Source: an uncultured Candidatus Saccharibacteria bacterium (GTDB lineage Bacteria; Patescibacteriota; Minisyncoccia; Phycocordibacterales; Phycocordibacteraceae). Taken from it: 64,000 bases of DNA. The position numbers were made by a program, and so were the translations under genes. Of this stretch, positions 44,690 to 60,704 are shown one piece after another. The notes under the pieces were generated by a model. The model did no database searches, had not been told where the DNA came from, and worked only from the letters and a program-made list of their open reading frames with translations. Each line of letters opens with the position of its first letter. Positions within the stretch are counted from its first letter, which is position 1. Location: positions 207 to 64,206 of the forward strand of contig CAYNNZ010000002.1 of NCBI GenBank assembly GCA_964398815.1. Reading direction: 5' to 3'.

Positions 44690-46036
44690 TTATCCGCCCA
44701 AGGTGTCGATATCTGACTGATACTGAGCCGCAAAATCCATCACGCTATTGGCATAGGCCTGACCGGCCGTAGCCCAATTCCCTCCTGCATAGTATTTCGC
44801 AGCTGCGGTGTGTTCCGCGTTATAGGAGCCACCGGCACCCCCTACGGCCGAGAGGTAGAGACCCGTCGCGGTAATGGCATGGAGCGGATTCCATGGGTCG
44901 GCCGCTGAAATACCCAACGCCTTCTCTATTTGCGGCTTAAGTCCAATCCACGTGGATGGGATGAACTGAGTCGGACCCATGGCGCCACCATATCCATTCC
45001 CCTGAGGACAGGAGACGGCCGTTGTTTTCCAGTCGCGCCCGAGGTCATCCATGATGGTCTTGAACGGGACGGTGTCGCGCGGCGACTTCATGACCCCTGT
45101 CGCTGCGTTTGAGTTTCCTGTTCCAAAGCCGGTCGCGAGGTCGGTCACATAGCACCTGCCCACGTTCGAACCGAGATTCGACTCCTGTCGCAAAATGGCA
45201 AGAATGAATGCCGCCCGCACTCCGGTAATACGTGATGAGGTCTTTGCGTATTCAATAGCGGTTGGGAGCGGTATCTGACCGCCACCACCTGCAAGTGCGA
45301 ACAATTCCGAACGAATCTGCGCGGCAGTCTTCTGCTTCGTCGCAACAATCTGCTGATACAGATTCTCCTGTCCCTTGGTAGCAGTGAGTAGCTGCTGCTT
45401 AGCATTCTGTTGATCCTGAACTTTCTTCTTTGCCTCCAGCTGCAGCTGCGCCACCTGCTGCTGCTGCTTACGCTGCTCTTCCAGCTCATCCTTTTCCGCC
45501 TCAGCCTGCAACTTCGTGCCAGTAATGACTTCATAGGAATCCCCAAGCGACTGCTTCACGAATGCGTACGAGTCGAGGTCCCCGAACAACTTGCTGATGT
45601 CGTCTGCAGAAAACGCGAGCTCGACGAGAGACATATTGTCGATTTCTTCGGTACGGCGAAGTATCTGCGCAAGCGACTCTTTCTCGTTCGAGAGCTTGGT
45701 TGAGAGCGACGTGATGGTCCTCTGATGTACGGAAATATTCGAATCAATCTGCTTGATGGCGACCTGAGTGGCCTGCACCTGCAGCTGCGCCTTCTTGATC
45801 TGTGCATTCAGTGTCGCAACCTCGGTCGAAAGCGACTTACCCTGCGAAGCAAGCTTGTCGACCATCGCCTGGTTCTCAGCGATTTCAGACTCGAGCTGGT
45901 TCAACTGGCTCTGCAGCTGCGCGCGCCGGTCGTCGGTCGACTGCGCGAACAGCACATGCGGCAGGACTGCACCTGCGGTAAGCGCAATGATGAGAATGCC
46001 TACGAATAGGGCTGGTAGAGAGAACCTGAGGCGCAT
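44690..46036 (-). CDS. secreted coiled-coil protein with C-terminal lytic transglycosylase (MltB/SLT_2-like) domain, paralog 1
   Basis: Signal/TM. About 230 aa of Gln/Glu-rich coiled coil. C-terminal LRQESNLG...GGAMGPTQFIPSTW...YYAGG. About 75-80% identical to 56549..57907. Confidence 0.7.
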   Translation of the reverse strand: MRLRFSLPALFVGILIIALTAGAVLPHVLFAQSTDDRRAQLQSQLNQLESEIAENQAMVDKLASQGKSLSTEVATLNAQIKKAQLQVQATQVAIKQIDSNISVHQRTITSLSTKLSNEKESLAQILRRTEEIDNMSLVELAFSADDISKLFGDLDSYAFVKQSLGDSYEVITGTKLQAEAEKDELEEQRKQQQQVAQLQLEAKKKVQDQQNAKQQLLTATKGQENLYQQIVATKQKTAAQIRSELFALAGGGGQIPLPTAIEYAKTSSRITGVRAAFILAILRQESNLGSNVGRCYVTDLATGFGTGNSNAATGVMKSPRDTVPFKTIMDDLGRDWKTTAVSCPQGNGYGGAMGPTQFIPSTWIGLKPQIEKALGISAADPWNPLHAITATGLYLSAVGGAGGSYNAEHTAAAKYYAGGNWATAGQAYANSVMDFAAQYQSDIDTLGG

Positions 46037-46059
46037 ATCTTGTATATTCTAGCAGACGT

Positions 46060-46096
46060 AAAAAGAGCCGATTCCTTGCAGAATCGGCTCTTTTTA
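46060..46096 (-). terminator. Rho-independent terminator downstream of rplY copy 1
   Basis: aaaaagagccgattc-cttgcag-aatcggctcttttt. Confidence 0.5.
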
Positions 46097-46130
46097 TCTA
46101 CCTGGGCGCCTGAAGACGCAGAAATATTTT

Positions 46131-46220
46131 GGATGCGAGGCGCGGGAAATTTCTGAGCGCAGGCGTATTCCGTATACGACGGAGCGAGGAAATGGGTCCC
46201 GCAACAACGCAGACAGGATG
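46131..46220 (+). repeat. structured intergenic repeat, copy E (absent from the paralogous locus at 57908-57986)
   Basis: GAUGCGAGGCGCGGG...GCGUAUUCCGUAUACGACGGAGCGAG...GGGUCCCGCAACAACGCAGAC. Track ORF 46129 reads through it. Confidence 0.55.
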
Positions 46221-46221
46221 T

Positions 46222-46866
46222 TTATGCGTCTTCCGTAGACTCTTCAGTCTCCTTGCCCTTACCTTCGACTTCGATACTATCCATATCCGGAGCAGCAGAA
46301 TCCTCCTCCTTCTCTTCCTCAATAGCCTGAGCAAGTGCGACTACCTCCTCGCCATCCACCTTCACAGTGACGCCTGCAGGAATCTTGAGGTCTGACACGC
46401 GGATTTGGTCACCCTCAGCAGCAAGTGCCGACATGTCGACTTCAATCTCGTGCGGAAGGTTAGCGGGGTCTGCCTCGATTTCGAGTTCATGCATAACCTT
46501 CACAATATTCATGCCGAGCTTAACGGCCGGAGCCTCACCGATGAATGAGAGCGGCACCGCGACCTCGACTTTCGCGCCCTTCTCGATTGCGTAGAGGTCC
46601 GCATGACGCGGGAGATTCGTGACTGGGTCAAAATCAACGTCATGAATGAGCACCTGCATGTCAGCACCGAGTCCGGTGAGCGAAATGACGGAAGACTCAC
46701 CTGCGTCGCGGAGAATCTTCTTAAATTCTCCTGCCTCGAGCGAAATGGAGGTTGCGTCCTGCTTCGGTCCATAAACAACCGCAGGAATACGGCCTACTGC
46801 GGCAAGTGCGCGTCCAGCTTCCTTACCGGTCGCCTCGCGCGTCTGTGCGTTCAAAGTAATAGTCAT
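46222..46866 (-). CDS. rplY: 50S ribosomal protein L25 / general stress protein Ctc, copy 1
   Basis: MTITLNAQTREATGKEAGRALAAVGRIPAVVYG... plus an acidic tail. Paralog at 57987..58631. Confidence 0.85.
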   Translation of the reverse strand: MTITLNAQTREATGKEAGRALAAVGRIPAVVYGPKQDATSISLEAGEFKKILRDAGESSVISLTGLGADMQVLIHDVDFDPVTNLPRHADLYAIEKGAKVEVAVPLSFIGEAPAVKLGMNIVKVMHELEIEADPANLPHEIEVDMSALAAEGDQIRVSDLKIPAGVTVKVDGEEVVALAQAIEEEKEEDSAAPDMDSIEVEGKGKETEESTEDA

Positions 46867-46920
46867 ATAGAGGTATGTAGTACCTGCCGAGTATGCCGGA
46901 AATAGGCCGTTCTGGCAATA

Positions 46921-47919
46921 TTAGCCCACCAGTGCCTCCGAAACGGTCTTTAGCCGAGCCAGGAATGCCTCCCGAGCCTTCCCCACGTTCTCCTTCTTCC
47001 CCTTCCATATAAGGAGAGCTTCTTCTTGGAGGGCACGAGCGAAACTGAAGGTAAGCGGCCATGGCGCATTTCGCTCCTTCGCGAGTTTTGCTATTGCGCG
47101 CAGGTTTTCGGTCGCCTGGTCGGGCGTCTGACCACCTGATAGGAAGACGATGCCTGCAAGTCCGCGCGGCACGATATCCATGAGAACTGAAACCGTGTCT
47201 TCCGCCACCTCCTCAGGGGTATCGGTCCGGCCGCTCTCATGACCAGAAAGCACCATGGCGGTCTTGAGAATGACGCCTGACGGGTCCACTGCATTATCGG
47301 CAAGTGCCTCGAATACGGTCTTGAGCGTTGCCTCGAGTACGGCCTTGGCGCGGACACGACTATGCGTTCCTGCGTACATGACCTCCGGCTCGATGATGGG
47401 AACCATGCCGACTTCCTGCACATCGCGCGCGTAAATAGCGAGGCGGCGTGCATTCTCCACAAGCGCCTGTGCTGTCGGCAGCGTATCTCCTTCGATGGTC
47501 ACGACCGCGCGCCATTTCGTGAAGCCAGTTTCGTATTCCTTCCGGAATCCTATAAGTCGGTCACAGAGACCTATGACCCCCTTGGTTATAAGTTCGTTCG
47601 GGCTTTCCGGAAACGGTTCCGTTCCCTCATCCACCTTAATGCCTGGAGTGATGCCACGGGCCGCAAGTGATTTTGAAAATAACTTCTTATCGCTTCCCTT
47701 CTGGTTCAACTGTTCGGAGAACAGAATGACGCCGGAGAGATACTGCTCGACACCCGGTGCCGTGAGGTAGAGGTCGTGGAATTGCCTGCGCATCTCCTCG
47801 CCCTGCTCGATGCCATGGTCGGCGAGCCGTTTGTCGGCAGTGTGCGTGCTTTCGTCGGCAGCCAGAATGCCTTTCCCGGGAGCAAACAACGATTCAGCGA
47901 TAGTGGAGAGGTCAGTCAT
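46921..47919 (-). CDS. fba: fructose-bisphosphate aldolase class I, copy 1
   Basis: GKGILAADESTHT Schiff-base-region motif and IVFLSGGQ. Paralog at 58686..59684. Confidence 0.85.
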   Translation of the reverse strand: MTDLSTIAESLFAPGKGILAADESTHTADKRLADHGIEQGEEMRRQFHDLYLTAPGVEQYLSGVILFSEQLNQKGSDKKLFSKSLAARGITPGIKVDEGTEPFPESPNELITKGVIGLCDRLIGFRKEYETGFTKWRAVVTIEGDTLPTAQALVENARRLAIYARDVQEVGMVPIIEPEVMYAGTHSRVRAKAVLEATLKTVFEALADNAVDPSGVILKTAMVLSGHESGRTDTPEEVAEDTVSVLMDIVPRGLAGIVFLSGGQTPDQATENLRAIAKLAKERNAPWPLTFSFARALQEEALLIWKGKKENVGKAREAFLARLKTVSEALVG

Positions 47920-47938: not shown

Positions 47939-50900
47939 CTAGAACTCGACGATGTTCGGGAGCACGTTCACCACGACCTTCTTCTTCGTGCCGCCACAAT
48001 CGATTTCATACGTGCGCTGCGTCGTGATGTTCGTGATGGTGACGGTATTTGATGCAGAGCTCGTGATTTGACACTGCGCGTCCGAGACGGTCGTGGTGCG
48101 TGTGTTTACGCTCGTACCGCCTACATCCACTCCGTTTACCGTACAGGTCTGCCCTGCCGTCTCGCCTGTAACACTCCACGCTACCGTTACGCTTCCGCCT
48201 GAGGTGACGTGCGTCGGAGTCGCGGTAATGGTCTGCGTAAGTGGGTCGGAGCAGGTGTTTGCCTCGCCTGCGATAGTGACTGGCGAACAGGTGAATGGTC
48301 CTGCCGATTGCGTCCCGTTGGTTGCTGATACGGTTGGTGCGTAGTTACCCGGAGCCGCAAACTGCGACGTGAACGCGCTGCTTGCACCCGATCCTGATGC
48401 AGGTGTGCCGCCCGTAACATTCCAAGTGTATGAGGCCGGGGACGGTGAGAAGCCGGTTACTGTTGCTGTCCAGGTCACATCCACATTTGGAGCAGCAGCT
48501 GAAGGAGATGGTGTACACGAGCTGATAGTAGGTACCGCAGGAGCTGATACAGCAATCGCCGTCCATGCACCACAGTTATCATTCTCATCAGACTCTGTGA
48601 TGATTCCTAGATTCGATCCACTACTCTTATCCGCACACACACGCAGATACTTAGTGGTGCCTCCATCACCGGCTGGGAAGGTGTACGAGATGCTGGTCGG
48701 TGCAGTGCCTCCTGAAAGCATTACGCCAAGTGCGCTCACTCCAACATCGGATGCCCCACCTCCTGAAGCATCATTCGCCTTCTGGAGAAGTGTCGCGAAG
48801 CCAGCGCCGGTCGAAGCAGCGCCATTATTGGTTACGGTTGCCGAATATGAAGCTGAGGAGCCGGTGGTTGCTGATGTTGGAGAAACACTTCCCGTAGTGA
48901 GGTTAGGCTGTGCGGTAGCTACGGTTACAGCCGTCCAAGCACCACAGTTGTTTGCCTCGTCGCTCTCGGTGATAGCTCCTACGAATGAGGTGTTGTTATC
49001 AGCACAGATGCGCGTGTACCAGGTGCCCGCCGTTCCCATGGTGTACGTGTAGTAGGCCGTTCGACTCGATCCATTTGCTATTGCGGCGGTCGTGGTAGCA
49101 AACGATGCGGTGACACTCGTGTGATCAACATCATTATCGAACTGGAAGAGAGTGTTGAAGGTAGCTCCGGTTGGTGCTGTTCCCCCGTTTGTGACGGTGC
49201 CCGAGAAGACGGTACTTACCGACGTTGAGACCGTGGTCGGTACGACGGTGCCTGCAGTGAGATCTGGCTGTGCAGCAGAGCCAACGGTGACCGCAGTCCA
49301 AGCACCACAGTTGTTTGCCTCGTCGCTTTCTGTAATAACGCCCGTACCTGCCGTTGACTGCTTGTCAGCACAGACACGAACATATTTTGTAGTACCTCCA
49401 TCACCTGCTGGGAAGGTGTAGCTCAATTGAGCATTGGTAGTATTGCTGCCTCCCGTATTACTGAGTGTTGCGTTTGCATAGGTACCAATATCAGTCGCTC
49501 CGGTACCAGAAGCATCGTTTGCCTTCTGGAAGAGGTCAGTAAACGCTGCTCCTGTGGAAGCCGTACCTCCGTTCGTAACGGTAGCCTGAAGGGTTACGGC
49601 ACTACCCGCTGTCGCGGCTGTTGGGGTTACCGCTCCCGTGGTGAGATCAGGTAGTGGTGTAGTCACCGTAACGGTTCCTCCGTCGGACGTTCCGCCATTG
49701 CCGTCAGCATTGAGCGAACAAGCAATTGCGCCCGTATTCTGCGCACCACTCGTTACCGTCACCGTAGCAGTCTTTGCACCTGAGGAGACGTAGCTCTTCA
49801 CGACTGACACTGTTGAGCCAGTAAGACTATCTGTTCCGCTCCAACTATAGGTGTAGCTACCCGTACCTCCAGACGGATATGCCGTCCAGGTAACGTTCTG
49901 ACCGGTGTTTATGCTGGTCGGAAGTGCAGAACACGTAACTGCGAGTACGTTGTATACCGTAACCGCTGTCCATGGGGCACAGTTATCTCCCTCATTACTT
50001 TCAGTAATAGTGCCGACAAATGACGAGTTGTTATCCGCACAAGCACGCACATACCACGTACCCGCAGATGGGAACGCGTAACTCACACTTGCTGCATTGT
50101 TAGCGCCTGCTGCAAGGGTGGCATTACTGTGTGTACCGATAACGGTTGCACCCGTACCCGAGGAATCGGTTGCGCGCTGGAAGACGTTCGTGAAGCCGGC
50201 ACCGGTAGTTGCACCTCCTGTGTTTGTGACCGTGGCGCCAATGGTTGCCGCTACTCCTGCGACCGGATTAGTTGGGGTGGCGGTCATTGAACCGGCGGTG
50301 AGGTTTGGCTGAGGTGCGGCAGTCACCGTAACTGTTTGCCAAGCGCTACAGTTGTTCGCTTCATTCGATTCCGTAATACTTCCGACACTACTCGTGTTGA
50401 GATCGGCACAGGCACGCACCTGATAGCTACCCGTTGAGGTGAAGGTGTAATTCGCAGAGATTGCTGCGTTACCACTCGCGACAAGAGCCGTAATGGTGTT
50501 AGCGGCCACGTTGGTGACACCCGAGATCTGAATGGTGTTTGAGAAGGTTCCGCCGGCTGTCGCTGCTCCAGGGTTAGAAACGGTCGCAGTGAGATTGAGC
50601 GCTACATTCTGTGTTGCGGACGTCTGACCTATGAGGCTCGCGGTAAGGTCCGGCTGCGGAAGTGCATCAAGGGTAACAGCAGTCCAGGCACCACAGTTGT
50701 TCGCTTCGTTACTCTCTGTGATAGCGCTTGTAGAGTCAGCACACACTCGAAGGTACTTCGTGGTGCCAGCATCACCTGCTGGGAAGGTGTACGAGATATT
50801 GGTATTTGAGGAGGCACCGTTTGCGAGCGTTCCCATAGCCGCTGTCGCAATATCCGTTGCACCCGTACCAGACGCATCTGTTGCCTTCTGAGCTTTGTTA

Positions 50901-52525
50901 GTAAAGCCAGCACCCGTTGAAGCTGTTCCCCCGTTAGTGACTGAAGCAACAATACTTACCGCGACACCTGTTGCGGTTGAAGCGGGTGACGTAACACTTC
51001 CGGTAGAGAGATCTGGCTGTGGAGGAGCAGCTACCGTAACGGTGGTCCAGGCACCACAGTTGTTCGCTTCGTTACTCTCGGTGACGGCAGAAGCACCATC
51101 GGCACAGAGGCGAACCTGGTAGGTTCCGGCACTTGGATACGTAACGTTTGCTGAGGTTGAGTTAGATCCGGACGCCGCAACCGTAATGGAGTTGGTGGTA
51201 TAACTCGAACCACCCTGCACCTCTATCGTAGAAGTGAAGTTGCTGGCCGCCGTACCACCACCGTTTGAGACGGTTCCAGACGTTGATACTGCCTGCCCCG
51301 CTGTTGCTGTGGTTGGCGAGATAGTACCTGCAGTGAGATCAGCAGGAGCTGCAGCAATCGTTACCGAGTAGGTAGTCCAACCTGAACTTGAACTATTCGA
51401 ATCTTGCGCGAGCGCACGGAAGGTCTTCGTGCCGACCGTTGCCCAACTGTAGTCTTGCGTACGGCTTGTTCCGCTACTTACGTATCCTGAGGCAGGGAGC
51501 CATTGATCAACGGCACCATCGAAGTCCCAGTCGATACCGTAACGGAGCTGATCATTATCTGGGTCAGTACTTACAAAGGAGTAGGTATACGAAGTACTTG
51601 GAAGACCAGTAGTAGGTCCACCAATAGTAGGTGCGGTTGGTGGATTATTCGGGACCACCGCAGTAAGCGGATAGTTAACCGTGAATGCTGGAATGTTCAC
51701 CTGCTTACCTGGGCGTATTTGAACTGCGTGCTGTGAGGGATGATAACTATCTTCTTGCGGTCCATTGGCAAGCGGGTAGTTGTTTCCAACACAGGTGCCG
51801 CCGCTCGGAGCTCCACCGTATCGGTAGTAGAAATAGCCGTACGACGTGCCGAAATTAAAGTTAGGAGCGAGAGCACCGGTTGATGTAACCGTACAGGTTG
51901 CTATCAATGAACCGTCTCCCTGCGCAGTAAGCGCACCACAGGAAAGACCGGATAGGTTAGAGAGGGCTCGTGTTGGCGGTGTAAGACTGAGAGGGACGAA
52001 CTGATCGAAGTATCGCTCGCCACCAGAGTCGCTCTCATGTGCGCTCGAAGTGTAGTCCTTGTAATCACAAGTTGCTGCCTGCGGTGGCGCACCACCAGCG
52101 ATCCAGTCTCCGTAAGGTGAGTCCACCACACCACCGGTTCCAAACCAGAAGATGTTTTGATAGACATACGGGTTGAACTTGAGATCGATCGTCTGACCTA
52201 CAGACACCGTACCGTTCTGCGCGATAGAGGAGCCTGAATTATGGTCAAGGACGAATACGTCATACCCCACCGTGATGTTGGGGTTCGAAAGGGCGTTTTC
52301 ATATCCAGCTACATATGGTCCTCCCCAGTCCCATGCGTAATAGAAGTCTCCAGTGATCTGAACAGACTGCGTGTAGTGACCGGTTACGGGCAAGTTTGTG
52401 GGAGCAGTCGCGGTGATGTAGATAATCGAGACCGGTGGGATGTCACCGCCAGCAAGAACCCCAAAAGGGATAGTAAGCACCAGGAGGGCAAGAATGCGGG
52501 CGAGATCTAGAAGGTAAGGACGCAT
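47939..52525 (-). CDS. giant secreted protein (~1528 aa) with PKD-like and more than 10 CARDB-like tandem domains
   Basis: Signal peptide MRPYLLDLARILALLVLTIPFGVLA (start at the internal Met 4 nt after the upstream gene's stop). Repeats end in the (I)TESNEANNCGAWTAVTV CARDB signature. IDWDFDGAVD is a PKD-like motif. Confidence 0.8.
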   Translation of the reverse strand: MRPYLLDLARILALLVLTIPFGVLAGGDIPPVSIIYITATAPTNLPVTGHYTQSVQITGDFYYAWDWGGPYVAGYENALSNPNITVGYDVFVLDHNSGSSIAQNGTVSVGQTIDLKFNPYVYQNIFWFGTGGVVDSPYGDWIAGGAPPQAATCDYKDYTSSAHESDSGGERYFDQFVPLSLTPPTRALSNLSGLSCGALTAQGDGSLIATCTVTSTGALAPNFNFGTSYGYFYYRYGGAPSGGTCVGNNYPLANGPQEDSYHPSQHAVQIRPGKQVNIPAFTVNYPLTAVVPNNPPTAPTIGGPTTGLPSTSYTYSFVSTDPDNDQLRYGIDWDFDGAVDQWLPASGYVSSGTSRTQDYSWATVGTKTFRALAQDSNSSSSGWTTYSVTIAAAPADLTAGTISPTTATAGQAVSTSGTVSNGGGTAASNFTSTIEVQGGSSYTTNSITVAASGSNSTSANVTYPSAGTYQVRLCADGASAVTESNEANNCGAWTTVTVAAPPQPDLSTGSVTSPASTATGVAVSIVASVTNGGTASTGAGFTNKAQKATDASGTGATDIATAAMGTLANGASSNTNISYTFPAGDAGTTKYLRVCADSTSAITESNEANNCGAWTAVTLDALPQPDLTASLIGQTSATQNVALNLTATVSNPGAATAGGTFSNTIQISGVTNVAANTITALVASGNAAISANYTFTSTGSYQVRACADLNTSSVGSITESNEANNCSAWQTVTVTAAPQPNLTAGSMTATPTNPVAGVAATIGATVTNTGGATTGAGFTNVFQRATDSSGTGATVIGTHSNATLAAGANNAASVSYAFPSAGTWYVRACADNNSSFVGTITESNEGDNCAPWTAVTVYNVLAVTCSALPTSINTGQNVTWTAYPSGGTGSYTYSWSGTDSLTGSTVSVVKSYVSSGAKTATVTVTSGAQNTGAIACSLNADGNGGTSDGGTVTVTTPLPDLTTGAVTPTAATAGSAVTLQATVTNGGTASTGAAFTDLFQKANDASGTGATDIGTYANATLSNTGGSNTTNAQLSYTFPAGDGGTTKYVRVCADKQSTAGTGVITESDEANNCGAWTAVTVGSAAQPDLTAGTVVPTTVSTSVSTVFSGTVTNGGTAPTGATFNTLFQFDNDVDHTSVTASFATTTAAIANGSSRTAYYTYTMGTAGTWYTRICADNNTSFVGAITESDEANNCGAWTAVTVATAQPNLTTGSVSPTSATTGSSASYSATVTNNGAASTGAGFATLLQKANDASGGGASDVGVSALGVMLSGGTAPTSISYTFPAGDGGTTKYLRVCADKSSGSNLGIITESDENDNCGAWTAIAVSAPAVPTISSCTPSPSAAAPNVDVTWTATVTGFSPSPASYTWNVTGGTPASGSGASSAFTSQFAAPGNYAPTVSATNGTQSAGPFTCSPVTIAGEANTCSDPLTQTITATPTHVTSGGSVTVAWSVTGETAGQTCTVNGVDVGGTSVNTRTTTVSDAQCQITSSASNTVTITNITTQRTYEIDCGGTKKKVVVNVLPNIVEF

Positions 52526-52529
52526 ACGG

Positions 52530-53954
52530 TTATAGCGATGAAGGTGGTACGAGTGGCGTTGGCACATGCGGTTTAGGGCGCGTGCGCAGATACACGAGCA
52601 CAACAATTCCAATGAGCAGTAAGGCCGTCACTCCATATATACCAATCGCCATGAGTGATGGTGCCTGGCAGGCTCCACCGAGCTGACTGCAACGATATGG
52701 GATCGTTATCTTATCAATGGTCTTTCCATTCTGGGAGACCTTAGCCACCAAGTCGAAAGAAGTGAGTCCTGCCTTAGCAACGGGCATGGTAAGCGCCACA
52801 ATTTGGGACGGTGCGACTCCTTCATATACTTGATGTGAAAGCGGAATACCAATCAATCCGAAGAAGAGCGGTTCCTTCATCCACACATCGACGCGGGTAC
52901 CGGCAGCTTCTCCGAGACCTGCGTCATGGAAGCAGGCGAATGCTTTCGACTCAGCGGTGGTGGGATACTCAGTAACATTCAGTGAGTTGATGCGGGGAGT
53001 ATCGATTCCACGTCGTGCAAATCGAATGCCCACTATTGATTTCGATCCTGCGGGTGTCTTGAGTTCCCCAACGAGGTAGTACACCGAGTGACTTGTATCA
53101 GTAAGCGCATAAGAGACAGATGCTTTTGTTCCGGCTCCCACTTCAACACGTTCTGTTTTCTGATCAATGAGGTGGTCCTCACGAATACCATCCCAGTAAT
53201 AGAGTTTCCAGTGGACCTCTCCTGAATAATTCTGAACACCTGTGTTCTCTACATCTATCTTTATCGCTGTCTCCTTAAGATCAGGTGGCAAGGTCTGGGG
53301 AAATGCTGCGAAGTAGTAAGGGTGGTCGTTTATGGTCGCAGTTCCTTTGTCGAATCGAGTTGGGCCTGCACTGTCACCTATCACCTTGAACTGATAGAAG
53401 CCGCCAGTGACGTCGTCTGTGAATGAGAGGCCGAGGAAATTAAAGCGATCCTTTTGAGTAACGTACGCTGCCATTCGATACTGTCCGGGTGCCGCATCTG
53501 CAGGAACATTCCATGTAAACTGAAGTGGCAGTGTTTCCCCTGCTTTGAGATTCACGTGCTCGAGCACGGGGAAGAAGTCAACAATGTCTGGACCGTTCAC
53601 GTCCTTTTCTACGCTGCGCTGACGCATCACCTTTACATACACCGTCGCATCGACGATCGGATACTTGTTCTGATTCGTTACGCTTCCCGAGACTGCAAAC
53701 GGGACACCAATAGAGACAGAAGCAAGTTCTGCAGTGAGCACCACCGGTGTTGAACCGAATGTGTAATAGAGGAAGCAGCTATCGAGGTTGGTATCGGTGC
53801 GCACTACTGCATTTTGCGCAGTTGGTGCCTTGGTTTTATCAAAGGTTTCAAATCCTGCTTGAGCAGATACGGTCGTTGGACCGAGAAGAAGCGCGAGTAC
53901 GAGCGGAATAATGAACGAGGTACGAACAAAGGTAGACGCAGTTGGACGACTCAT
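52530..53954 (-). CDS. hypothetical cell-surface protein (474 aa) with signal peptide and C-terminal TM anchor
   Basis: N-terminal signal VLALLLGPTTVSAQA. C-terminal TM LMAIGIYGVTALLLIGIVVLVYLRTRPKP. Immediately upstream of, and co-oriented with, the CARDB giant gene. Confidence 0.6.
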   Translation of the reverse strand: MSRPTASTFVRTSFIIPLVLALLLGPTTVSAQAGFETFDKTKAPTAQNAVVRTDTNLDSCFLYYTFGSTPVVLTAELASVSIGVPFAVSGSVTNQNKYPIVDATVYVKVMRQRSVEKDVNGPDIVDFFPVLEHVNLKAGETLPLQFTWNVPADAAPGQYRMAAYVTQKDRFNFLGLSFTDDVTGGFYQFKVIGDSAGPTRFDKGTATINDHPYYFAAFPQTLPPDLKETAIKIDVENTGVQNYSGEVHWKLYYWDGIREDHLIDQKTERVEVGAGTKASVSYALTDTSHSVYYLVGELKTPAGSKSIVGIRFARRGIDTPRINSLNVTEYPTTAESKAFACFHDAGLGEAAGTRVDVWMKEPLFFGLIGIPLSHQVYEGVAPSQIVALTMPVAKAGLTSFDLVAKVSQNGKTIDKITIPYRCSQLGGACQAPSLMAIGIYGVTALLLIGIVVLVYLRTRPKPHVPTPLVPPSSL

Positions 53955-54036: not shown

Positions 54037-55500
54037 ATGAAAGTAGCCCATATTCTTCTCCTACTTGCGTCCCTAGCGACTGCCATCGGGATGGTGTTCC
54101 CGATATGCTGGACTCTTTCCATTCTCGGACTGGCCGTCTTTTTCTACCTCATACTCGACCGAATACCTTCCGTCCTCCAAGCGGGATGGTATGGACTCTT
54201 CTTTGGGGTGGTGACCGGTGGTGCAGGCATCCTATGGTTCTGGGACGCATATCCCCTCACCTTCCTCGGTATTACGAACTCCACCATTGGTCTCGTTATG
54301 GTTGGACTTACCTGGCTCTACGTCTCGGTGAGTCTTGGTGTTGCCGTCGCATTCTTCTCGATCGGTGTGTGGTATCTGCGCACGTGGATGTGGACACCTC
54401 TTTTAATTCCGGTGCTGTGGATGATTACTGAGGAAGCACGTATGTGGGGATACACCTTTTTTACATACGGCCCAGGCTCACTCATAGGTGCACATTTCTC
54501 TCCCTCTTCGATCGGATATCTTCTTAGTGAAAATTCGTACCTTCTCCAGCTTGCGTTTCCGTTTGGGCTTCTCGCACTCAACACCGCTGCAGCACTCATC
54601 GCAGTTGCGCTCATGGTTCTGTATCGATCAACGACTCGCGTCGTGCGCTCGGTAATTTTTGCCGCACTACTGGTGGTACTGTTGCTTCCGCTCGCTACGA
54701 CGTATCGAGACACCGGTGAAGCGCAAACGCTCATTCGCGTTGCAGTGGTAGGAACTGATGGACCTGCAGACAATCCAACACTCGGGTCCGCTCAGGCACG
54801 AGAATTGTTGAAAGCTAGTGCTGAAGATCACGCCATCGAACTTATTGTGCTTCCTGAAGTGTTGGGGTTCACTCGTATGTTTGGTAACTACGAAACAGGA
54901 TTAGAAACCATTCGCTCCTGGTTCGGTACTCGAGACGTACTTGTCGCTTCGAGTGAAAAAGTTCCGGCGGGTGATGGGTTTGTTGAGCAGCTGGTATACA
55001 CGAGTACGCAGTCAGGACGAGTAAGTGAGTACACTAAAATGCTACTGATACCGCTCGGTGAATATACTCCCTCCTTCTCTACCGTTCTGTACGCTCTCAT
55101 CACGGACGAGGGCGTGCGTGCGTATTTCAATAACTTGCATTCGTATGGATTGTCGGCGGGTACCGAAGTTACACCGGTGACGTACAACCATGTCACCATT
55201 GGAGGACTCTTGTGCTCTGATCTGTTGTCGCCGCAGCTCTACCACACCCTGGTGAAGCGTGATCATTCGAAACTGCTCATCAGTCTTTCCAATCAGTACT
55301 GGTTCCATGGATCGCATATCTTGTTTGATAAGACCCTTCAAATGGCCCGCGTCCGAGCTGTACAGGATCATGTACCGTTAGTTCTCGCCAATAACGCCGC
55401 GCCCTCTTTTATCCTCGACCCTACAGGTAGGGTTATGCGGCAGTCACACTGGCATACGCCTGAGGTCTTAGTGCACGAAGTACCTATTACTCTTCCGTAG
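54037..55500 (+). CDS. lnt: apolipoprotein N-acyltransferase-like protein (polytopic membrane domain + C-terminal CN-hydrolase/nitrilase domain)
   Basis: At least 6 N-terminal TM helices, then a nitrilase-type domain (IRVAVVGTDG...ELIVLPE...LLCSDLL). Confidence 0.6.
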   Translation: MKVAHILLLLASLATAIGMVFPICWTLSILGLAVFFYLILDRIPSVLQAGWYGLFFGVVTGGAGILWFWDAYPLTFLGITNSTIGLVMVGLTWLYVSVSLGVAVAFFSIGVWYLRTWMWTPLLIPVLWMITEEARMWGYTFFTYGPGSLIGAHFSPSSIGYLLSENSYLLQLAFPFGLLALNTAAALIAVALMVLYRSTTRVVRSVIFAALLVVLLLPLATTYRDTGEAQTLIRVAVVGTDGPADNPTLGSAQARELLKASAEDHAIELIVLPEVLGFTRMFGNYETGLETIRSWFGTRDVLVASSEKVPAGDGFVEQLVYTSTQSGRVSEYTKMLLIPLGEYTPSFSTVLYALITDEGVRAYFNNLHSYGLSAGTEVTPVTYNHVTIGGLLCSDLLSPQLYHTLVKRDHSKLLISLSNQYWFHGSHILFDKTLQMARVRAVQDHVPLVLANNAAPSFILDPTGRVMRQSHWHTPEVLVHEVPITLP

Positions 55501-55502
55501 AT

Positions 55503-56552
55503 ATGGACCGGCCTCCCTTCTTCCGTATTGCATTCATTCTGCTTATCTTGGGAGGTGTGTTGCTGGCCGTGCCGTACCTATTTCCTCATGACCGTCCACT
55601 TGAAGTAACCATCTCCACCAAACCCTTAGCGGTTCTTCCTGAGCATTCACATGATTTAGGTGAAGCAGAGGGTGATGATGGTCACGGAGTCTACGCATAC
55701 TCAGAAAGTGTCGTGGTGCCAGAAGATATGTGGGTCACCACCATCGAGGCGCATATGAAAAATGCTCCCGACTCTACCATTCACCATTTCATTTTGAAGG
55801 AAATGGGTGCGACCGATCCTGCATGTCCAAACTCTAGTGGCCGCACGCTATTCCTATTTGGACGCGACACCCGTTCACCGCAGCATTTCGGTGCCGCTCC
55901 CTACGGCATTTTTATTCCAAAAGGAACACCACTCGCGCTTGTGGCAATGATTCATAATCCGCACCCTCCCGAAGGCGTCGGTGGGACATACAAAGACGTG
56001 TCTGCAGTCATGACCGTGCGCGGCGTTGCTTCTGGTGGTTCGCGCACAAAGCCTTTGTCCATACGATTCCTAGTACTTTCTGACACGTCCTACTGCAATG
56101 ATTCGCCAGAAGCAAACACGTTTAGTATCCCTGCACTACGTAAGGAATACGTACAACAAAGTACTACGCTACAAGGAATTAATCGCGGGTCCCTTACCTT
56201 TGATGGAGATGCGACCCTGCTTGGCTTTGGCGGACATATTCATGCGTGGGAGGGCGGCAATGCGCTTGCGGTATATCTCAATAATAATTTGCTCCAGCTC
56301 ATCACGCCCCATCAAGCAGGAGCGGAACCCTGGTCATGGAAAACAGCTCCCGTAGATCGAGCGGTGCCGATGAAGAAAGGTGACACTATTTCACTTACGG
56401 CTACGTACGAAAATCCGAATGTAGTACCCACTCGCGGAGCCATGGGAATTGTGGGCTTAATATTCTGGCAACCTTCAAAGGAAGCGGAGTTGCTTGCGCC
56501 GTACAAGCAGACTACTGCCACCACCACTCTGGATCGGTACGGAACGTTCTAA
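55503..56552 (+). CDS. hypothetical membrane-anchored protein (349 aa)
   Basis: N-terminal TM FRIAFILLILGGVLLAV. No family assigned. Its 3' end overlaps the convergent LT paralog by 4 nt. Confidence 0.5.
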   Translation: MDRPPFFRIAFILLILGGVLLAVPYLFPHDRPLEVTISTKPLAVLPEHSHDLGEAEGDDGHGVYAYSESVVVPEDMWVTTIEAHMKNAPDSTIHHFILKEMGATDPACPNSSGRTLFLFGRDTRSPQHFGAAPYGIFIPKGTPLALVAMIHNPHPPEGVGGTYKDVSAVMTVRGVASGGSRTKPLSIRFLVLSDTSYCNDSPEANTFSIPALRKEYVQQSTTLQGINRGSLTFDGDATLLGFGGHIHAWEGGNALAVYLNNNLLQLITPHQAGAEPWSWKTAPVDRAVPMKKGDTISLTATYENPNVVPTRGAMGIVGLIFWQPSKEAELLAPYKQTTATTTLDRYGTF

Positions 56553-57907
56553 CCGCCCGCTAGTGTATCGATATCGTTCTGGAAGGTAGAGGCCTTATCC
56601 ATCACACTGTTTGCATATGCTTGGCCTGAAGATGCCCATGCACCGCCAGCGTAGTACTTAGCAGCTGCCGTATGCTCTGCGGCGTAGTTTCCACCTCCCC
56701 CACCTACAGCTCCAAGATAGAGGCCTGTTGCAACAATGGCGTGGAGTGGATTCCATGGGTCCGTTGCGGCGACCCCAAGTGCACTCTTAATGCGTGATTC
56801 GAAGGAGAGCCAAGTTGAAGGAATGAACTGGGTTGGACCCATTGCGCCGCCGTAGCCGCCGGGCTGCGGACAGGAGACTGGCGTAGTGGACCAGTCGCGA
56901 CCAAGTGCATCCATGATTGCTTTAAACGGAACGGTGTCGCGTGGCACCTTCATGATTCCTGAGAATGGTGTTCCGGTGTTCTTTCCCTTTCCGTCTCCCG
57001 TCGTAAGGTCGGTAACCAAACACTGGCCAACGTTTGCACCGAGATCTGTTTCCTGCGAAAGAATGGCGAGAATGAACGCTGCGCGTACGCCCGTGATGCG
57101 TGAAGCGGTCTTTGCGTACTCAATAGCAGTTGGAAGCGGAATCTTTCCAGCACCTCCGGCGAGTCCGAAGAGCTCTGCACGAATCTGACCCGCAGTCTTT
57201 TGTTTCGTCGCAACAATCTGCTGATACTTACTCTCCTCTCCCTTGGTAACCCTTAGGAGATCCTGCTTCGCTTGCTGTTGCTGTTGTACCTTCGCCTTAG
57301 CAGCCAGTTGTAGTTGCGCTACGTCCTGCTGTTGTTTGCGCTGTGCTTCGAGTGCAGACTTTTCACTTTCCGTTTGTAGTTTAGTACCCGTGATCTCTTC
57401 GTATGAATCCCCGAGTGCTTGCTTCACGAACACGTATGAGTCGAGATCACCGAGTAGTGTTGAAATATCTTCTGCGGAGAATGCAAGTTCAACGAGTGAC
57501 ATGGTGTCAATCTCATTGGTACGTCTTAAAATTTGTGCAAGAGACTCTTTCTCATTTTGTAGCTTCTCCGAAAGCGTACTGATGGTGCGCTGATGCACGG
57601 TGATATTGGAATCGAGTTGTTTGATAGCTACCTGCGTCGCCTGCACCTGGAGCTGCGCTTTTTTAATTTGCGCATTGAGCGTCGTCACTTCACTAGAAAG
57701 AGATTTACCCTGTGCGGAAAGTTTTTCGACCACTGCCTGGTTTTCTGCAATCTCTTTCTCGAGCTGATTCAGCTCATTCTGAAGTTGAGTGCGCCGCTCG
57801 TCAGAGATGCTCTGAGCGAAAATGAGGTGAGGAACTACCGCTCCCGCCAGCAAAACGAGAGACGTGAGGAGTACTGCGAGCGCACCGAGAGAAAACCGCA
57901 AACGCAT
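56549..57907 (-). CDS. secreted coiled-coil lytic transglycosylase-like protein, paralog 2
   Basis: Collinear paralog of 44690..46036 (MRLRFSL... N-terminus, same ES / GAMGPTQFIPSTW / YYAGG motifs). Confidence 0.7.
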   Translation of the reverse strand: MRLRFSLGALAVLLTSLVLLAGAVVPHLIFAQSISDERRTQLQNELNQLEKEIAENQAVVEKLSAQGKSLSSEVTTLNAQIKKAQLQVQATQVAIKQLDSNITVHQRTISTLSEKLQNEKESLAQILRRTNEIDTMSLVELAFSAEDISTLLGDLDSYVFVKQALGDSYEEITGTKLQTESEKSALEAQRKQQQDVAQLQLAAKAKVQQQQQAKQDLLRVTKGEESKYQQIVATKQKTAGQIRAELFGLAGGAGKIPLPTAIEYAKTASRITGVRAAFILAILSQETDLGANVGQCLVTDLTTGDGKGKNTGTPFSGIMKVPRDTVPFKAIMDALGRDWSTTPVSCPQPGGYGGAMGPTQFIPSTWLSFESRIKSALGVAATDPWNPLHAIVATGLYLGAVGGGGGNYAAEHTAAAKYYAGGAWASSGQAYANSVMDKASTFQNDIDTLAGG

Positions 57908-57934
57908 ACTATTGTTTCAAGTATATCAGACGGA

Positions 57935-57969
57935 CAAAGCGCCGATCTCTTTCGAAATCGGCGCTTTGT
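57935..57969 (-). terminator. Rho-independent terminator downstream of rplY copy 2
   Basis: caaagcgccgat-ctctttcgaa-atcggcgctttg. Confidence 0.5.
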
Positions 57970-57986
57970 GACGCACAAAAGGGGTT

Positions 57987-58631
57987 TTATTCAGCTTCTG
58001 CTGCGCCCTCTTCCTCACTCTTACCCTTACCTTCGACTTCAATAGCGTCCATATCTGGAGCTGCTGAGTCTTCTTCCTTCTCTTCCTCAATAGCCTGCGT
58101 GAGGGCAACGACTTCTTCGCCATCTGCCTTAACGGTAACCCCAGCTGGGATCTTAAGGTCAGATACGTGGATCTGGTCACCAAGCTCTGCGAGACCGGAA
58201 ATATCAACCTCGATGTGCTGTGGAAGATTTGCTGCGTCAGCTTCGATATCGAGCTCATGCATAACCTTAACAAGGTTTGCGCCCGCCTTAACCGCTGGTG
58301 ACTCACCGGTAAACTCAAGAGGTACGGCAATTTCAACCTTTGCACCCTTCTCGATAGCGTAGAGGTCGGCATGACGAGGGATGCTGGTTACGGGATCGTA
58401 GTCAACATCATGGATAAGAACCTGGAGGTCCTTACCAATACCCGCGAGGGCGAGCACAGACGACTCACCCGCATCACGGAGAATCTTTTTGAACTCAGCG
58501 AGCTCAAGGGAAATGGTGGTCGACTCCTGCTTTGGTCCGTAGACCACCGCTGGAATACGGCCTTCTGCGGAAAGAGAGCGGCCGGCGTGCTTGCCGGTCT
58601 CGGTTCGGGTTTGTGCGTTTAGCGTAAACAT
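57987..58631 (-). CDS. rplY: 50S ribosomal protein L25 / Ctc, copy 2
   Basis: MFTLNAQTRTETGKHAGRSLSAEGRIPAVVYG... Start at the internal Met of the track ORF, aligned to copy 1. Confidence 0.8.
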   Translation of the reverse strand: MFTLNAQTRTETGKHAGRSLSAEGRIPAVVYGPKQESTTISLELAEFKKILRDAGESSVLALAGIGKDLQVLIHDVDYDPVTSIPRHADLYAIEKGAKVEIAVPLEFTGESPAVKAGANLVKVMHELDIEADAANLPQHIEVDISGLAELGDQIHVSDLKIPAGVTVKADGEEVVALTQAIEEEKEEDSAAPDMDAIEVEGKGKSEEEGAAEAE

Positions 58632-58685
58632 ATATAGGTAGTGATACCTGGCGAGTATGCCTGAAAAGCCCCTGAATGGCAAGAA

Positions 58686-59684
58686 CTAGGCCGTAAGTGC
58701 CTCAGATACCTTCTGTAAACGCTCGAGAAAGACTGCGCGGGCTGCCTCTACGTTCTTAGGCTGTCCCTTCCAGGTGTTGAGAGCTTCTTCTTGTACCGCG
58801 CGGGCGAAGGAGAAAGTGATGGGCCAAGGGGCTCCTTTGGACTTTGCCACCTTTGCAATTGCCCGGAGATTCTCAGTTGCCTGGTCCGGCCCCTGTCCTC
58901 CCGATAGAAATACGATACCGGCAAGACTGGCGGGGACCGTCTCCATGAGCGCGGCAACCGTATCCTCGGCCACTTCTTCTGGAGTATCCATACGTCCACT
59001 CTCACGTCCTGAGAGTGCCATCGCAGTTTTAAGAACGGTACCCGAGAGGTCTACCGCATGATCGTTCATCGCTGCAAAGACACTCTGCATGGTTGCTTCG
59101 ATAACCGTCCTGGCACGTACACGACTATGTGTGCCTGAATACATAACTTCAGGTTCGATAATAGGCACCATTGATACTTCCTGAGCATCACGCGCATAGA
59201 CGGCAAGACGACGCGAGTTTTCGACAAGGGCTTGCGCTGTTGGAAGTCTATCGCCTTCAATCGTTACCACCGCACGCCACTTTGTGAAGCCGGTATTGTA
59301 GTCCTGATTGTATCCACTCAATCGATCACATAGTCCGAGCACTCCTTTGGTAATGAGCTCATCGGGGCTCTCTGGAAAGGGCTCAGTTCCTTCATCTACT
59401 TTGACGCCAGGAATGATACCTCTCTCCGAGAGAGAGACGGAGAACAGCTTCTTGTCACTTCCCTTCTGTGGAAGCTGTTCAGTATTGAGAATCGCTCCAG
59501 AAAGATATTGTTCAACGCCTGGAGCCGTTAAGTAGAGGTCATGGAACTTACGACGCATCTCTTCGGATGTCTCGATGCCATGATCGATAAGACGTTTATC
59601 TGCGGTGTGGGAACTTTCGTCAGCGGCCAATAACCCTTTTCCCGGGGCAAAGAGGCGCGCTGCTACTGCTGAAAGATCGGTCAT
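58686..59684 (-). CDS. fba: fructose-bisphosphate aldolase class I, copy 2
   Basis: MTDLSAVAARLFAPGKGLLAADESSHT... Start at the internal Met aligned to copy 1. Confidence 0.85.
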   Translation of the reverse strand: MTDLSAVAARLFAPGKGLLAADESSHTADKRLIDHGIETSEEMRRKFHDLYLTAPGVEQYLSGAILNTEQLPQKGSDKKLFSVSLSERGIIPGVKVDEGTEPFPESPDELITKGVLGLCDRLSGYNQDYNTGFTKWRAVVTIEGDRLPTAQALVENSRRLAVYARDAQEVSMVPIIEPEVMYSGTHSRVRARTVIEATMQSVFAAMNDHAVDLSGTVLKTAMALSGRESGRMDTPEEVAEDTVAALMETVPASLAGIVFLSGGQGPDQATENLRAIAKVAKSKGAPWPITFSFARAVQEEALNTWKGQPKNVEAARAVFLERLQKVSEALTA

Positions 59685-59708
59685 ACCCGTATGGTAGCAT
59701 GGCCGCAT

Positions 59709-60704
59709 ATGGCTCAATTGGATTTTCTCGCTGTTGGCGACATCGTTACGGAACCCTTTATCAAACTAAAGGATGCGCAGCTACACTGCACCATTAATAC
59801 GGACACCTGTGAGATTTGTATGCGTTTTGGAGACAAGATCCCCTACGAAAGCGCGACGGTATGCGTTGCCGTAGGTAACGCTGCAAATGCTGCGGTCTCT
59901 GCTGCTCGTCTAGGACTCTCATCGGCACTTCGTGCGTATGTCGGGGATGACGAATACGGTCCTCCCTGTATTGCACAGCTAGAAAAAGAGGGTGTGTCAA
60001 CGGAATTTATGGTTACTGAACCAGGTAAACATTCCAACTATCACTATGTGCTGTGGTACGAAAACGACCGCACCATTCTCGTGAAGCACGAAGACTTTAC
60101 GTACACGGTTCCCGAGATTACTGAAGCACCCAAGTGGCTCTACCTCTCGTCCCTTGCTGACAAGTCCCTCCCGTATCATCAAGCGTGGCTCACCTGGTTG
60201 AATGAACATCCAGAAACAAAGCTTGTATTCCAGCCCGGTACGTTCCAGATGAAGCTTGGTGTTGAAGCACTCAAGGGTCTCTACGAGCGAAGCGAAGTAT
60301 ATGTGGTTAACCGTGACGAAGCTGCTCGTATTCTTGGTACTGATCGAGATGATGTTAAAGGACTACTCGATGGTCTTCATGCACTTGGTCCAAAGATAGT
60401 GATTGTCACTGATAACACTAATGGCGCGTACGCGTCGGACGGCACCCAACAGGTACATGTTCCTATGTATCCCGACCAACCAGCAGCGTTCGAGCGCACA
60501 GGTGCAGGTGACGCCTTTGCATCCACCTTTGCGAGTGCACTAGCTCTCGGAAAGACCTTCGAAGAAGCGCTTCTGTGGTCGCCTATTAACTCCATGTCAG
60601 TAGTGCAGCAGGTAGGAGCACAACAGGGTCTTCTCTCGCGTGAAGCGCTCGAAGCATTTCTTGCCAAAGCACCGCCCCACTACCGCATCGAGCCAATATC
60701 GTAG
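59709..60704 (+). CDS. PfkB-family carbohydrate kinase (ribokinase/fructokinase-like)
   Basis: N-terminal FLAVGDIV...; C-terminal TGAGDAFASTFASAL (PfkB signature 2). An alternative start at 59691 is possible. Confidence 0.75.
   Translation: MAQLDFLAVGDIVTEPFIKLKDAQLHCTINTDTCEICMRFGDKIPYESATVCVAVGNAANAAVSAARLGLSSALRAYVGDDEYGPPCIAQLEKEGVSTEFMVTEPGKHSNYHYVLWYENDRTILVKHEDFTYTVPEITEAPKWLYLSSLADKSLPYHQAWLTWLNEHPETKLVFQPGTFQMKLGVEALKGLYERSEVYVVNRDEAARILGTDRDDVKGLLDGLHALGPKIVIVTDNTNGAYASDGTQQVHVPMYPDQPAAFERTGAGDAFASTFASALALGKTFEEALLWSPINSMSVVQQVGAQQGLLSREALEAFLAKAPPHYRIEPIS

Follow-up and report, generated by a model that had tools for sequence, protein, structure and literature searches.

What kind of surface structure is specified by a membrane protein gene that lies immediately upstream of a giant gene built from repeated beta-sandwich domains? 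The question is raised by two reverse-strand genes in a 64,000-nt stretch of DNA from an uncultured Candidatus Saccharibacteria bacterium (contig CAYNNZ010000002.1, positions 207 to 64,206; the whole stretch analysed is hereafter called the window). A preliminary description of this DNA had proposed an operon of a transmembrane (TM)-anchored surface protein and a giant secreted protein with CARDB and PKD domains, lineage-specific and uncharacterised, and this pairing is supported by the analysis reported here. By itself, the CARDB/PKD giant is a commonplace representative of a known kind. The informative part of the locus, as judged by sequence comparison, is not the CARDB array and is formed by two elements together, namely the unannotated membrane protein (the partner) and the N-terminal domain of the giant (N-dom). 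Together, the two genes probably encode an undescribed two-part cell-surface fibre, and not just another repeat adhesin. They are located as follows.

52530..53954, (-): partner gene, 474 aa, predicted type-I membrane protein (open reading frame (ORF) and AlphaFold2 (AF2) model)
47939..52525, (-): giant gene, 4587 nt, 1528 aa from its ATG, multi-domain secreted protein (ORF list, Pfam)

The stop codon of the partner and the ATG of the giant are separated by a spacer of 4 nt (CCGT), in agreement with the operon-like layout proposed before. The longest ORF of the giant, 1557 aa from an upstream TTG, would overlap the partner gene; the homologues of the giant begin at the position equivalent to the ATG and not at the TTG. 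Because of the 4-nt spacing observed here and the ATGA overlaps present in most partner/giant-type pairs of the relatives, translational coupling of the two genes is plausible. A promoter and terminator scan returned no more sites than shuffled sequence, and no terminator was predicted where the giant ends and the aldolase gene follows. The two-gene cassette sits in a conserved housekeeping neighbourhood (aldolase-L25-SLT ... L31-RF1-S2) that is typical for small candidate phyla radiation (CPR) genomes, and the named homologues all carry Paceibacteria/Minisyncoccota-type labels; on these grounds the source organism is assigned to the Patescibacteria of this type. The exact 1528-aa product has no record in the gene-position collection.

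The partner protein and its linkage to the N-terminal domain of the giant

The features of the partner and of the N-terminal part of the giant are listed below.

53862..53954, (-): partner signal peptide, aa 1-31, cleavage predicted after ..TVSA and before QA (model helix)
52695..53786, (-): partner ectodomain, three beta-sandwiches (aa 57-195, 199-315 and 320-420)
52581..52658, (-): partner C-terminal TM helix, aa 433-458, followed by RTRPKPH (AF2, hydrophobicity)
52445..52525, (-): giant signal peptide, aa 1-27, cleavage predicted after ..VLAGG and before D
51656..52378, (-): N-dom, aa ~50-290, ~240 aa, two beta-sandwiches with the invariant loop WFGTGxxxDSPYGxW (own hidden Markov model (HMM), E = 3.7e-87)

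The AF2 model of the partner, built with 25 homologues, has a mean predicted local distance difference test score (pLDDT) of 85.8. It opens with a signal-like helix (aa 9-23) and a low-confidence linker, and the A-x-A-type end of the predicted signal peptide is aligned across homologues. The three beta-sandwiches are followed by ~10 linker residues, the TM helix, whose position is kept across the 25 homologues, and a short basic, proline-rich tail; the TM anchoring proposed for this protein is thus well supported. Invariant elements of the family include the motifs NxNxYP and GLSFTDD and four conserved Cys. Neither Pfam nor NCBIfam has a family for the partner. In Pfam scans of the partner and the 25 homologues, Ig/CBM-like matches were scattered and stayed below threshold, and a profile search against all PDB sequences returned nothing significant.

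The giant has a single hydrophobic segment, located at its N-terminus, in line with the signal peptide assigned to it earlier; homologues possess canonical AxA sites at the same place. The AF2 model of N-dom (23 homologues, pLDDT 86.5) contains two beta-sandwiches. N-dom is without a match in Pfam, NCBIfam or PDB sequences, as determined by HMM scans and by a profile search of all PDB sequences, and fold searches return generic immunoglobulin (Ig)-like, FN3 and adhesin-stalk domains only. NCBIfam scans of the complete giant and of the homologues of N-dom likewise gave no relevant family.

An exhaustive profile search for the partner identified relatives in 1343 representatives at 50% identity, including 884 at E <= 1e-30, and ~60% of the best 150 exceed 850 aa, the size of a form in which the partner is fused to N-dom. 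A scan of GTDB species genomes found the partner in 128 genomes, and 80 loci were kept for analysis. Essentially all of these loci are from Patescibacteria; a handful are titled 'Bdellovibrionales', 'archaeon' or 'Bacillota', names that stem from automated labelling of metagenome-assembled genomes. ORFs were called in the 80 loci and searched with four HMMs of our own (partner, N-dom, CARDB repeat and giant C-terminal domain), with the following result.

31/81 partner genes: partner fused in frame to N-dom
27/81: N-dom gene immediately downstream of the partner, with a gap of typically -4 to +22 nt
10/81: N-dom gene immediately upstream of the partner
5/81: partner cut by the contig end
8/81: partner without an adjoining N-dom

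The comparative search for the operon partner, which the preliminary description had suggested as a check, thus yields a near-constant pair of partner and N-dom: 68 of the 76 evaluable partner genes are fused (31) or adjacent (37) to N-dom, in three arrangements, and the fused form is found in ~40% of related species. These counts bear on one alternative, that two unrelated surface proteins do nothing more than share an operon. Such a reading would fit the generic beta-sandwich make-up of the two proteins and their lack of any known interaction motif, yet the recurrent adjacency and above all the fusions strongly disfavour it, and we consider it highly improbable.

The fusions have a constant order. 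In 31/31 of them, the partner ectodomain is followed by the TM helix, a short loop, a second hydrophobic segment and N-dom. The loop is basic in 30/31, and an AxA-type signal-peptidase motif (typically ..AEA before KS) comes after the second hydrophobic segment in 27/31, features by which this segment is recognised as a predicted internal signal peptide. With such a topology both halves would end outside the membrane, side by side and in a 1:1 ratio, and the fused precursor is probably cut in two at the internal signal peptide. Since gene fusions are classical evidence for a functional link, we conclude from the fusions, together with the adjacency, that the partner and the giant very probably act as one unit.

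The part of the giant that is common to partner-linked proteins of other lineages comprises aa ~47-410 only, i.e. N-dom plus the following PKD domain. What comes after N-dom in the relatives differs: some have no tail at all, and others have 1-5 CARDB domains, PKD, a tandem of Ig-like domains or, at the C-terminus, Hint. Hint was observed in two relatives, P0037 (6001-7362 of locus L013), whose gene lies directly after a partner homologue, and P0041; in both, a Hint/PT-HINT domain comes after N-dom and forms the C-terminal end, an arrangement that suggests autoprocessing or covalent transfer of N-dom. A comparison with Hint-processed and polymorphic-toxin surface proteins does not extend to the giant itself, which is devoid of Hint/PT-HINT in Pfam scans. 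The polymorphic-toxin reading was rejected for the giant on this ground and because no toxin comes after the Hint domain in P0037 and P0041, the only relatives that have one.

The layout of the pair invites comparison with the S-layer proteins SlaA and SlaB of Sulfolobales (PMC10903991). SlaB has 475 aa, three beta-sandwiches and a TM helix (PMC10903991), and in both systems a membrane anchor of ~475 aa, in which a C-terminal TM helix comes after three beta-sandwiches, is accompanied by a more variable, beta-rich protein of ~1400-1500 aa. The cassette could accordingly be viewed as an S-layer-like two-component envelope, in which the partner would be a SlaB-like membrane stalk and the giant a SlaA-like canopy or lattice, that is, a core component of the envelope instead of an adhesin. 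Its spread in the lineage (1343 cluster representatives) and its conserved housekeeping neighbourhood would suit this role as well as do the similar sizes and layouts. On the other hand, the partner is without the 132-aa coiled-coil helix of SlaB, and the long trimeric coiled-coil stalk has no counterpart in the ~10 residues between domain 3 and the TM helix, where the AF2 model contains no long helix. No sequence similarity to any solved chain was detected. Furthermore, the tails of relatives, ranging from 402 to 1654 aa and bearing 0-7 CARDB domains, are hard to square with a regular lattice, and several genomes hold 2-3 paralogous cassettes. The cassette differs also in being bacterial, in showing no detected homology to SlaA/SlaB and in having fused single-ORF forms with an internal signal peptide. 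We therefore consider a core envelope role improbable, and the two-part fibre is kept as the preferred interpretation in the sections below.

Two further genes were noted near the cassette. A gene for an Lnt-like protein (LNT_N/CN_hydrolase, similar to apolipoprotein N-acyltransferase) is located at window positions 54037-55500 (+) and recurs by the cassette in L007, L013 and L105; it is odd in single-membrane bacteria, and neither cassette protein has a lipobox. An unannotated gene of ~350 aa at 55503-56552 (+) adjoins it and recurs in L105.

Domain architecture and repeat number of the giant protein

Downstream of N-dom, the giant is divided into the following features.

51356..51649, (-): PKD domain 1, aa 293-390 (IDWDFDGAVD), matched to PDB 4xed
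49946..51340, (-): CARDB repeats 1-4, aa 396-860 (Pfam, motif search, own HMM)
49655..49945, (-): PKD-like domain 2, aa 861-957, between CARDB4 and CARDB5 (PKD_4, sub-threshold)
48536..49654, (-): CARDB repeats 5-7, aa 958-1330 (Pfam, motif search, own HMM)
48254..48535, (-): PKD domain 3, aa 1331-1424 (PF00801)
47942..48253, (-): C-terminal Ig-like domain, aa 1425-1528, ~100 aa, ending ..VNVLPNIVEF-COOH (own HMM; no Pfam model matches)

The CARDB assignment is strongly confirmed by the HMM scan, where PF07705 matches seven stretches of the giant with E = 1.8e-60 and 201.9 bits against a gathering cut-off of 22.7. The motif [IV]TES[ND]E..N occurs in the giant exactly seven times (aa 481, 602, 717, 840, 1064, 1185 and 1309). 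Where more than ten tandem domains of ~95 aa, each ending in the signature, had been counted from the sequence, there are in fact seven copies of 108-129 aa, with pairwise aa identities of 37-68%, and the array is interrupted by the PKD-like domain at aa 861-957. In comparison with the CARDB proteins described (PF07705; PDB 3idu), the seven domains match the HMM and have the canonical C-terminal ..ITES(N/D)E.NN.., whereas the conserved Cys pair present in each unit (C-A-D ... N-N-C) and the Patescibacteria-specific architecture set them apart. In a Giovannonibacteria genome (L011, 11429-12112), a gene for a DsbA/thioredoxin-like protein was found directly after a CARDB partner-linked protein, and it may have a bearing on the conserved Cys pairs of the partner and of the CARDB repeats. 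The third CARDB protein reported elsewhere in the window (33535-34728, (+)) was also recovered, with one CARDB domain (E = 3.7e-08).

For the PKD assignment the HMM scores are mixed; the evidence favours two such domains and is weaker for a third. The region aa 293-390 has no PKD match above threshold in Pfam; it is homologous in sequence and fold to the PKD domain of PDB 4xed, from an archaeal M14-like peptidase (36-38% identity, superposition at 1.6-2.1 A), and differs from it in following N-dom and not a peptidase. The domain at aa 1331-1424 matches PF00801 over aa 1338-1407, with 27.6 bits when scanned alone (cut-off 23.5) and 20 bits in the full-length protein. Within the second, PKD-like domain, aa 869-931 reach 19.9 bits (E = 7.5e-4) against PKD_4 (PF18911), for which the cut-off is 27. 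In total, the giant contains ~13 beta-sandwich modules: two in N-dom, three PKD or PKD-like, seven CARDB and one C-terminal. No catalytic domain was found in the partner or in the giant; both AF2 models are all-beta, with Ig-like, PKD, CARDB and adhesin-stalk matches only.

With ~11 tandem Ig-like domains after N-dom in its 1528 aa, the giant has the large rod-like stalk by which fibrillar adhesins are defined. It resembles these proteins (PMC9210967) as a large secreted rod of diverged tandem Ig-like stalk domains (CARDB, PKD), rich in T/S/A/G and with variable ends, and differs from them (PMC9210967) in the absence of a recognised adhesive domain and of a cis anchor such as LPXTG plus TM segment or a lipobox. 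Neither N-dom nor the C-terminal domain matched an adhesive family in Pfam, NCBIfam or PDB. The search for a cis anchor revealed no C-terminal hydrophobic segment or TM helix, no lipobox and no working LPXTG; sortase anchoring was rejected because the LPVTG at aa 45 is unconserved in homologues and no TM segment comes after it. The adhesin-like label of the preliminary description is tentative for a protein in which neither an adhesive domain nor a cis-acting anchor was identified. In place of a cis anchor, we propose that the giant is anchored in trans by a dedicated membrane protein, co-encoded or fused.

The preliminary description had also regarded the repeats as diverged at the DNA level and had cautioned that misassembly might have collapsed or expanded them. 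The divergence is evident: identity is 60-86% in a 59-nt motif-centred family of repeats and 64-75% in two longer families (74 and 106 nt), and Tandem Repeats Finder reported no array in the giant. The longest exact common stretch observed, between the motifs of CARDB1 and CARDB2, has 35 nt. The same 4587-nt gene is present in an ENA assembly contig (L001, 2 mismatches) and in a JGI assembly contig (L003, 5 mismatches), and strain L006 (97% nt identity) encodes a 1530-aa giant of the same domain layout. Because the DNA copies are diverged and the gene recurs in both ENA and JGI assemblies, collapse or expansion of the CARDB array by misassembly is unlikely. Giant aa 492 (window ~51050), beside the 35-nt exact stretch of CARDB1, is the point where seven Logan contigs, each from a different run, come to an end, and we presumptively attribute these stops to the short CARDB1/CARDB2 repeat in combination with short-k assembly. 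The concern about the assembly is therefore shifted: the repeat array is probably sound, and the risk lies instead at gene nt ~4100, where a compositional step and a break in strain identity occur.

Strain variation and a junction inside the giant gene

A codon comparison of the window with L006 gave the following numbers of aa replacements per 100 aa.

Partner: 0 (all 17 codon differences are synonymous)
CARDB stalk: 0.6-1.3
N-dom: 4.9
PKD3: 18
C-terminal domain: 42

Between these strains no residue of the anchor has changed, the stalk has changed little and variation is found at the ends. Variation in N-dom is seen also at closer range. The near-identical contigs L001, L002 and L003 show 3-5 nt differences from the window over 13-21 kb, and the 2-5 of them in the giant all fall in N-dom (aa 73, 76, 163, 164 and 169; window 52021-52308); in L001 and L003 each of the N-dom differences alters an amino acid. 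This cluster of replacements could reflect diversifying selection. A diversity-generating retroelement is not indicated, as the changes are not adenine-specific.

The divergence of the C-terminal end has to be considered together with a junction in the gene and with a duplicated block at the two sides of the cassette.

48332..48481, no strand assigned: mosaic junction in the giant, gene nt ~4045-4194, aa ~1350-1398 (G+C content at third codon positions (GC3) and strain identity)
44690..47919, (-): aldolase-L25-SLT-like block, second copy, starting 19 nt downstream of the giant
56549..59717, (-): aldolase-L25-SLT-like block, first copy, upstream of the cassette

Over window positions 1-64000, GC3 is 0.56-0.80 in 30/30 ORF segments to the left of ~48,425 and 0.40-0.53 in 12/12 to the right of it, and within the giant it is 0.49 in the first 4098 nt and 0.65 in the last 486 nt. 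Identity to L006 is 96-100% up to gene nt ~4044, then 75% and then ~60%. From the GC3 step and the identity break we infer that the window combines two related genomes, which meet within the giant gene, the junction being either a natural recombinant or an assembly chimera.

As a chimera, the 1528-aa ORF would be partly an artefact, in which two co-occurring related genomes have been joined and the last ~163 aa, together with everything left of ~48,425, derive from another organism. The steps in GC3 and in L006 identity point in this direction, and so does the sequence downstream of the L006 giant, which continues, as in other relatives, into a putative L31 gene (read by eye, MKKDTHPADY..) and not into an aldolase. 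The two blocks flanking the cassette, which contain genes for a class I aldolase, ribosomal protein L25 and a coiled-coil SLT-like transglycosylase and are 70% identical at the nt level and 76-79% at the aa level, represent a duplication that is odd for a reduced genome. However, contigs that have single-nucleotide polymorphisms of their own (L001, L096, L003) contain the same junction, and they come from one JGI and at least two ENA assemblies; no long exact repeat was observed at the junction inside the gene. An assembly artefact is a serious possibility, though somewhat less likely than not. Exact-DNA and protein scans of metagenome contigs for the high-GC3 3' end found nothing, and the closest partner homologues, P0002 and P0003, belong to third organisms equally distant from both blocks, so that no donor was identified. 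The last ~163 aa of the giant, and with them any notion of a 'hypervariable tip', warrant caution. The domain architecture itself is independent of the junction, because L006 has a contiguous 1530-aa gene with an identical domain order.

The proposed surface fibre and its polarity

The mechanism that we propose for the two-part fibre is a membrane pedestal, the partner, which would hold a secreted modular fibre, the giant, by the N-terminal module of the latter, while the variable distal part would be projected by the CARDB/PKD stalk; we give this scheme about even chances. The partner would be exported and kept in the membrane by its C-terminal helix, so that its three beta-sandwiches are presented just outside. 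The giant would be exported through its own signal peptide, and its N-terminal module, composed of N-dom and the first PKD domain, would dock on the partner ectodomain. The remaining seven CARDB, two PKD-like and one terminal Ig-like domains would form a stalk of several tens of nm, at an assumed ~4 nm per domain, pointing outward. Contact with a host or substrate would then likely be made by the outer portions of the fibre, which change fastest between strains and lineages. For the individual parts of this scheme our confidence differs. The topology of the fused forms somewhat favours a physical complex of the two proteins in which N-dom lies next to the membrane, and the polarity, with the N-terminal end at the membrane, would follow the same pattern. 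A contact or adhesion role toward a host or substrate, suggested by analogy with fibrillar adhesins and by the strong expression of secreted Ig-like/PKD proteins in Paceibacteria during parasitism (PMC9210967, PMC10936435), is put forward tentatively, at a little below even chances.

Several observations weigh against this scheme. Adhesion is argued by analogy, for a protein with no recognisable adhesive domain. The extreme divergence of the last ~163 aa may be due to recombination or to an assembly chimera and not to diversifying selection. The aa variation of N-dom within the population would be more readily expected of a surface that is exposed and under selection than of a docking module buried in a complex. 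Finally, the C-terminal domain is of a type common to many secreted proteins and could be a wall or envelope anchor, which would reverse the polarity of the fibre.

The last of these points is connected with a wider family of C-terminal Ig-like domains. Related genomes encode many secreted proteins with the C-terminal ending P-x-[FWYIV]-x-E-[FI]. In loci L016-L095, V-x-V-x-P-x-[FWY]-x-E-[FI]-COOH or ..NW[KR]EV.P closes many secreted proteins, whether or not they contain N-dom. The shared ending, which is covered by no curated model, may represent a lineage-specific C-terminal signal or an anchoring strand. In the window, a second giant ORF (26677-31443, (-); 1588 aa) without a Pfam match has an N-terminal hydrophobic segment, a run of ~20 prolines, ~15 tandem ~80-aa copies of the C-terminal Ig-like domain detected by our own HMM and a C-terminal region that is of different composition and not repeat-like.

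If the giant is tethered to the wall or envelope by its C-terminal domain (..P-x-F-x-E-F-COOH), its N-dom would be exposed at the distal end and would meet the partner transiently, e.g. during export or folding, or never. The recurrence of domain and ending in many secreted proteins that have no N-dom, as expected of a generic sorting or anchoring module, and the concentration of population aa variation in N-dom are in line with such an arrangement. It conflicts with the fusions, where N-dom leaves the membrane right beside the partner, with the strain comparison, where the C-terminal domain is the most variable part, and with the occurrence of the same Ig-like domain in internal tandem (four in L022, ~15 in the second giant ORF), from which it follows that the domain is not exclusively a terminal signal. 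On balance, we judge this reversed arrangement quite unlikely, and the pedestal with an outward-pointing fibre is retained for the considerations below.

In the literature on CARDB or Ig-like surface proteins of CPR/Patescibacteria, no description of the partner-N-dom family was found, and the module appears to be undescribed, being lineage-wide, without a curated family model and present in split and fused forms. For Paceibacteria, published work gives only general indications, namely strong expression, during parasitism, of secreted proteins of the Ig-like, PKD and peptidoglycan-binding types (PMC10936435). The cassette offers a concrete candidate of such a kind, in which a conserved membrane protein of more than 1300 sequence clusters, with no Pfam or NCBIfam model, is genetically locked to a modular fibre.

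To our knowledge, the means by which Patescibacteria other than Saccharibacteria attach to and exploit their hosts are largely unknown, with few cultivated examples. The split and fused forms of the cassette predict a 1:1 complex and cleavage by signal peptidase at an internal site. The partner, N-dom and a third, Ig-like repeat family without a Pfam model are definable as new families, which would annotate thousands of 'hypothetical' CPR proteins. In its broadest form, which we regard as possible though unlikely, the partner and N-dom would constitute a lineage-wide surface apparatus of Paceibacteria-type Patescibacteria, a pedestal with interchangeable fibres that is made from two coupled genes or from a single precursor cleaved at its internal signal peptide, and would serve as a main host-contact device or a principal envelope structure of these ultra-small episymbionts.

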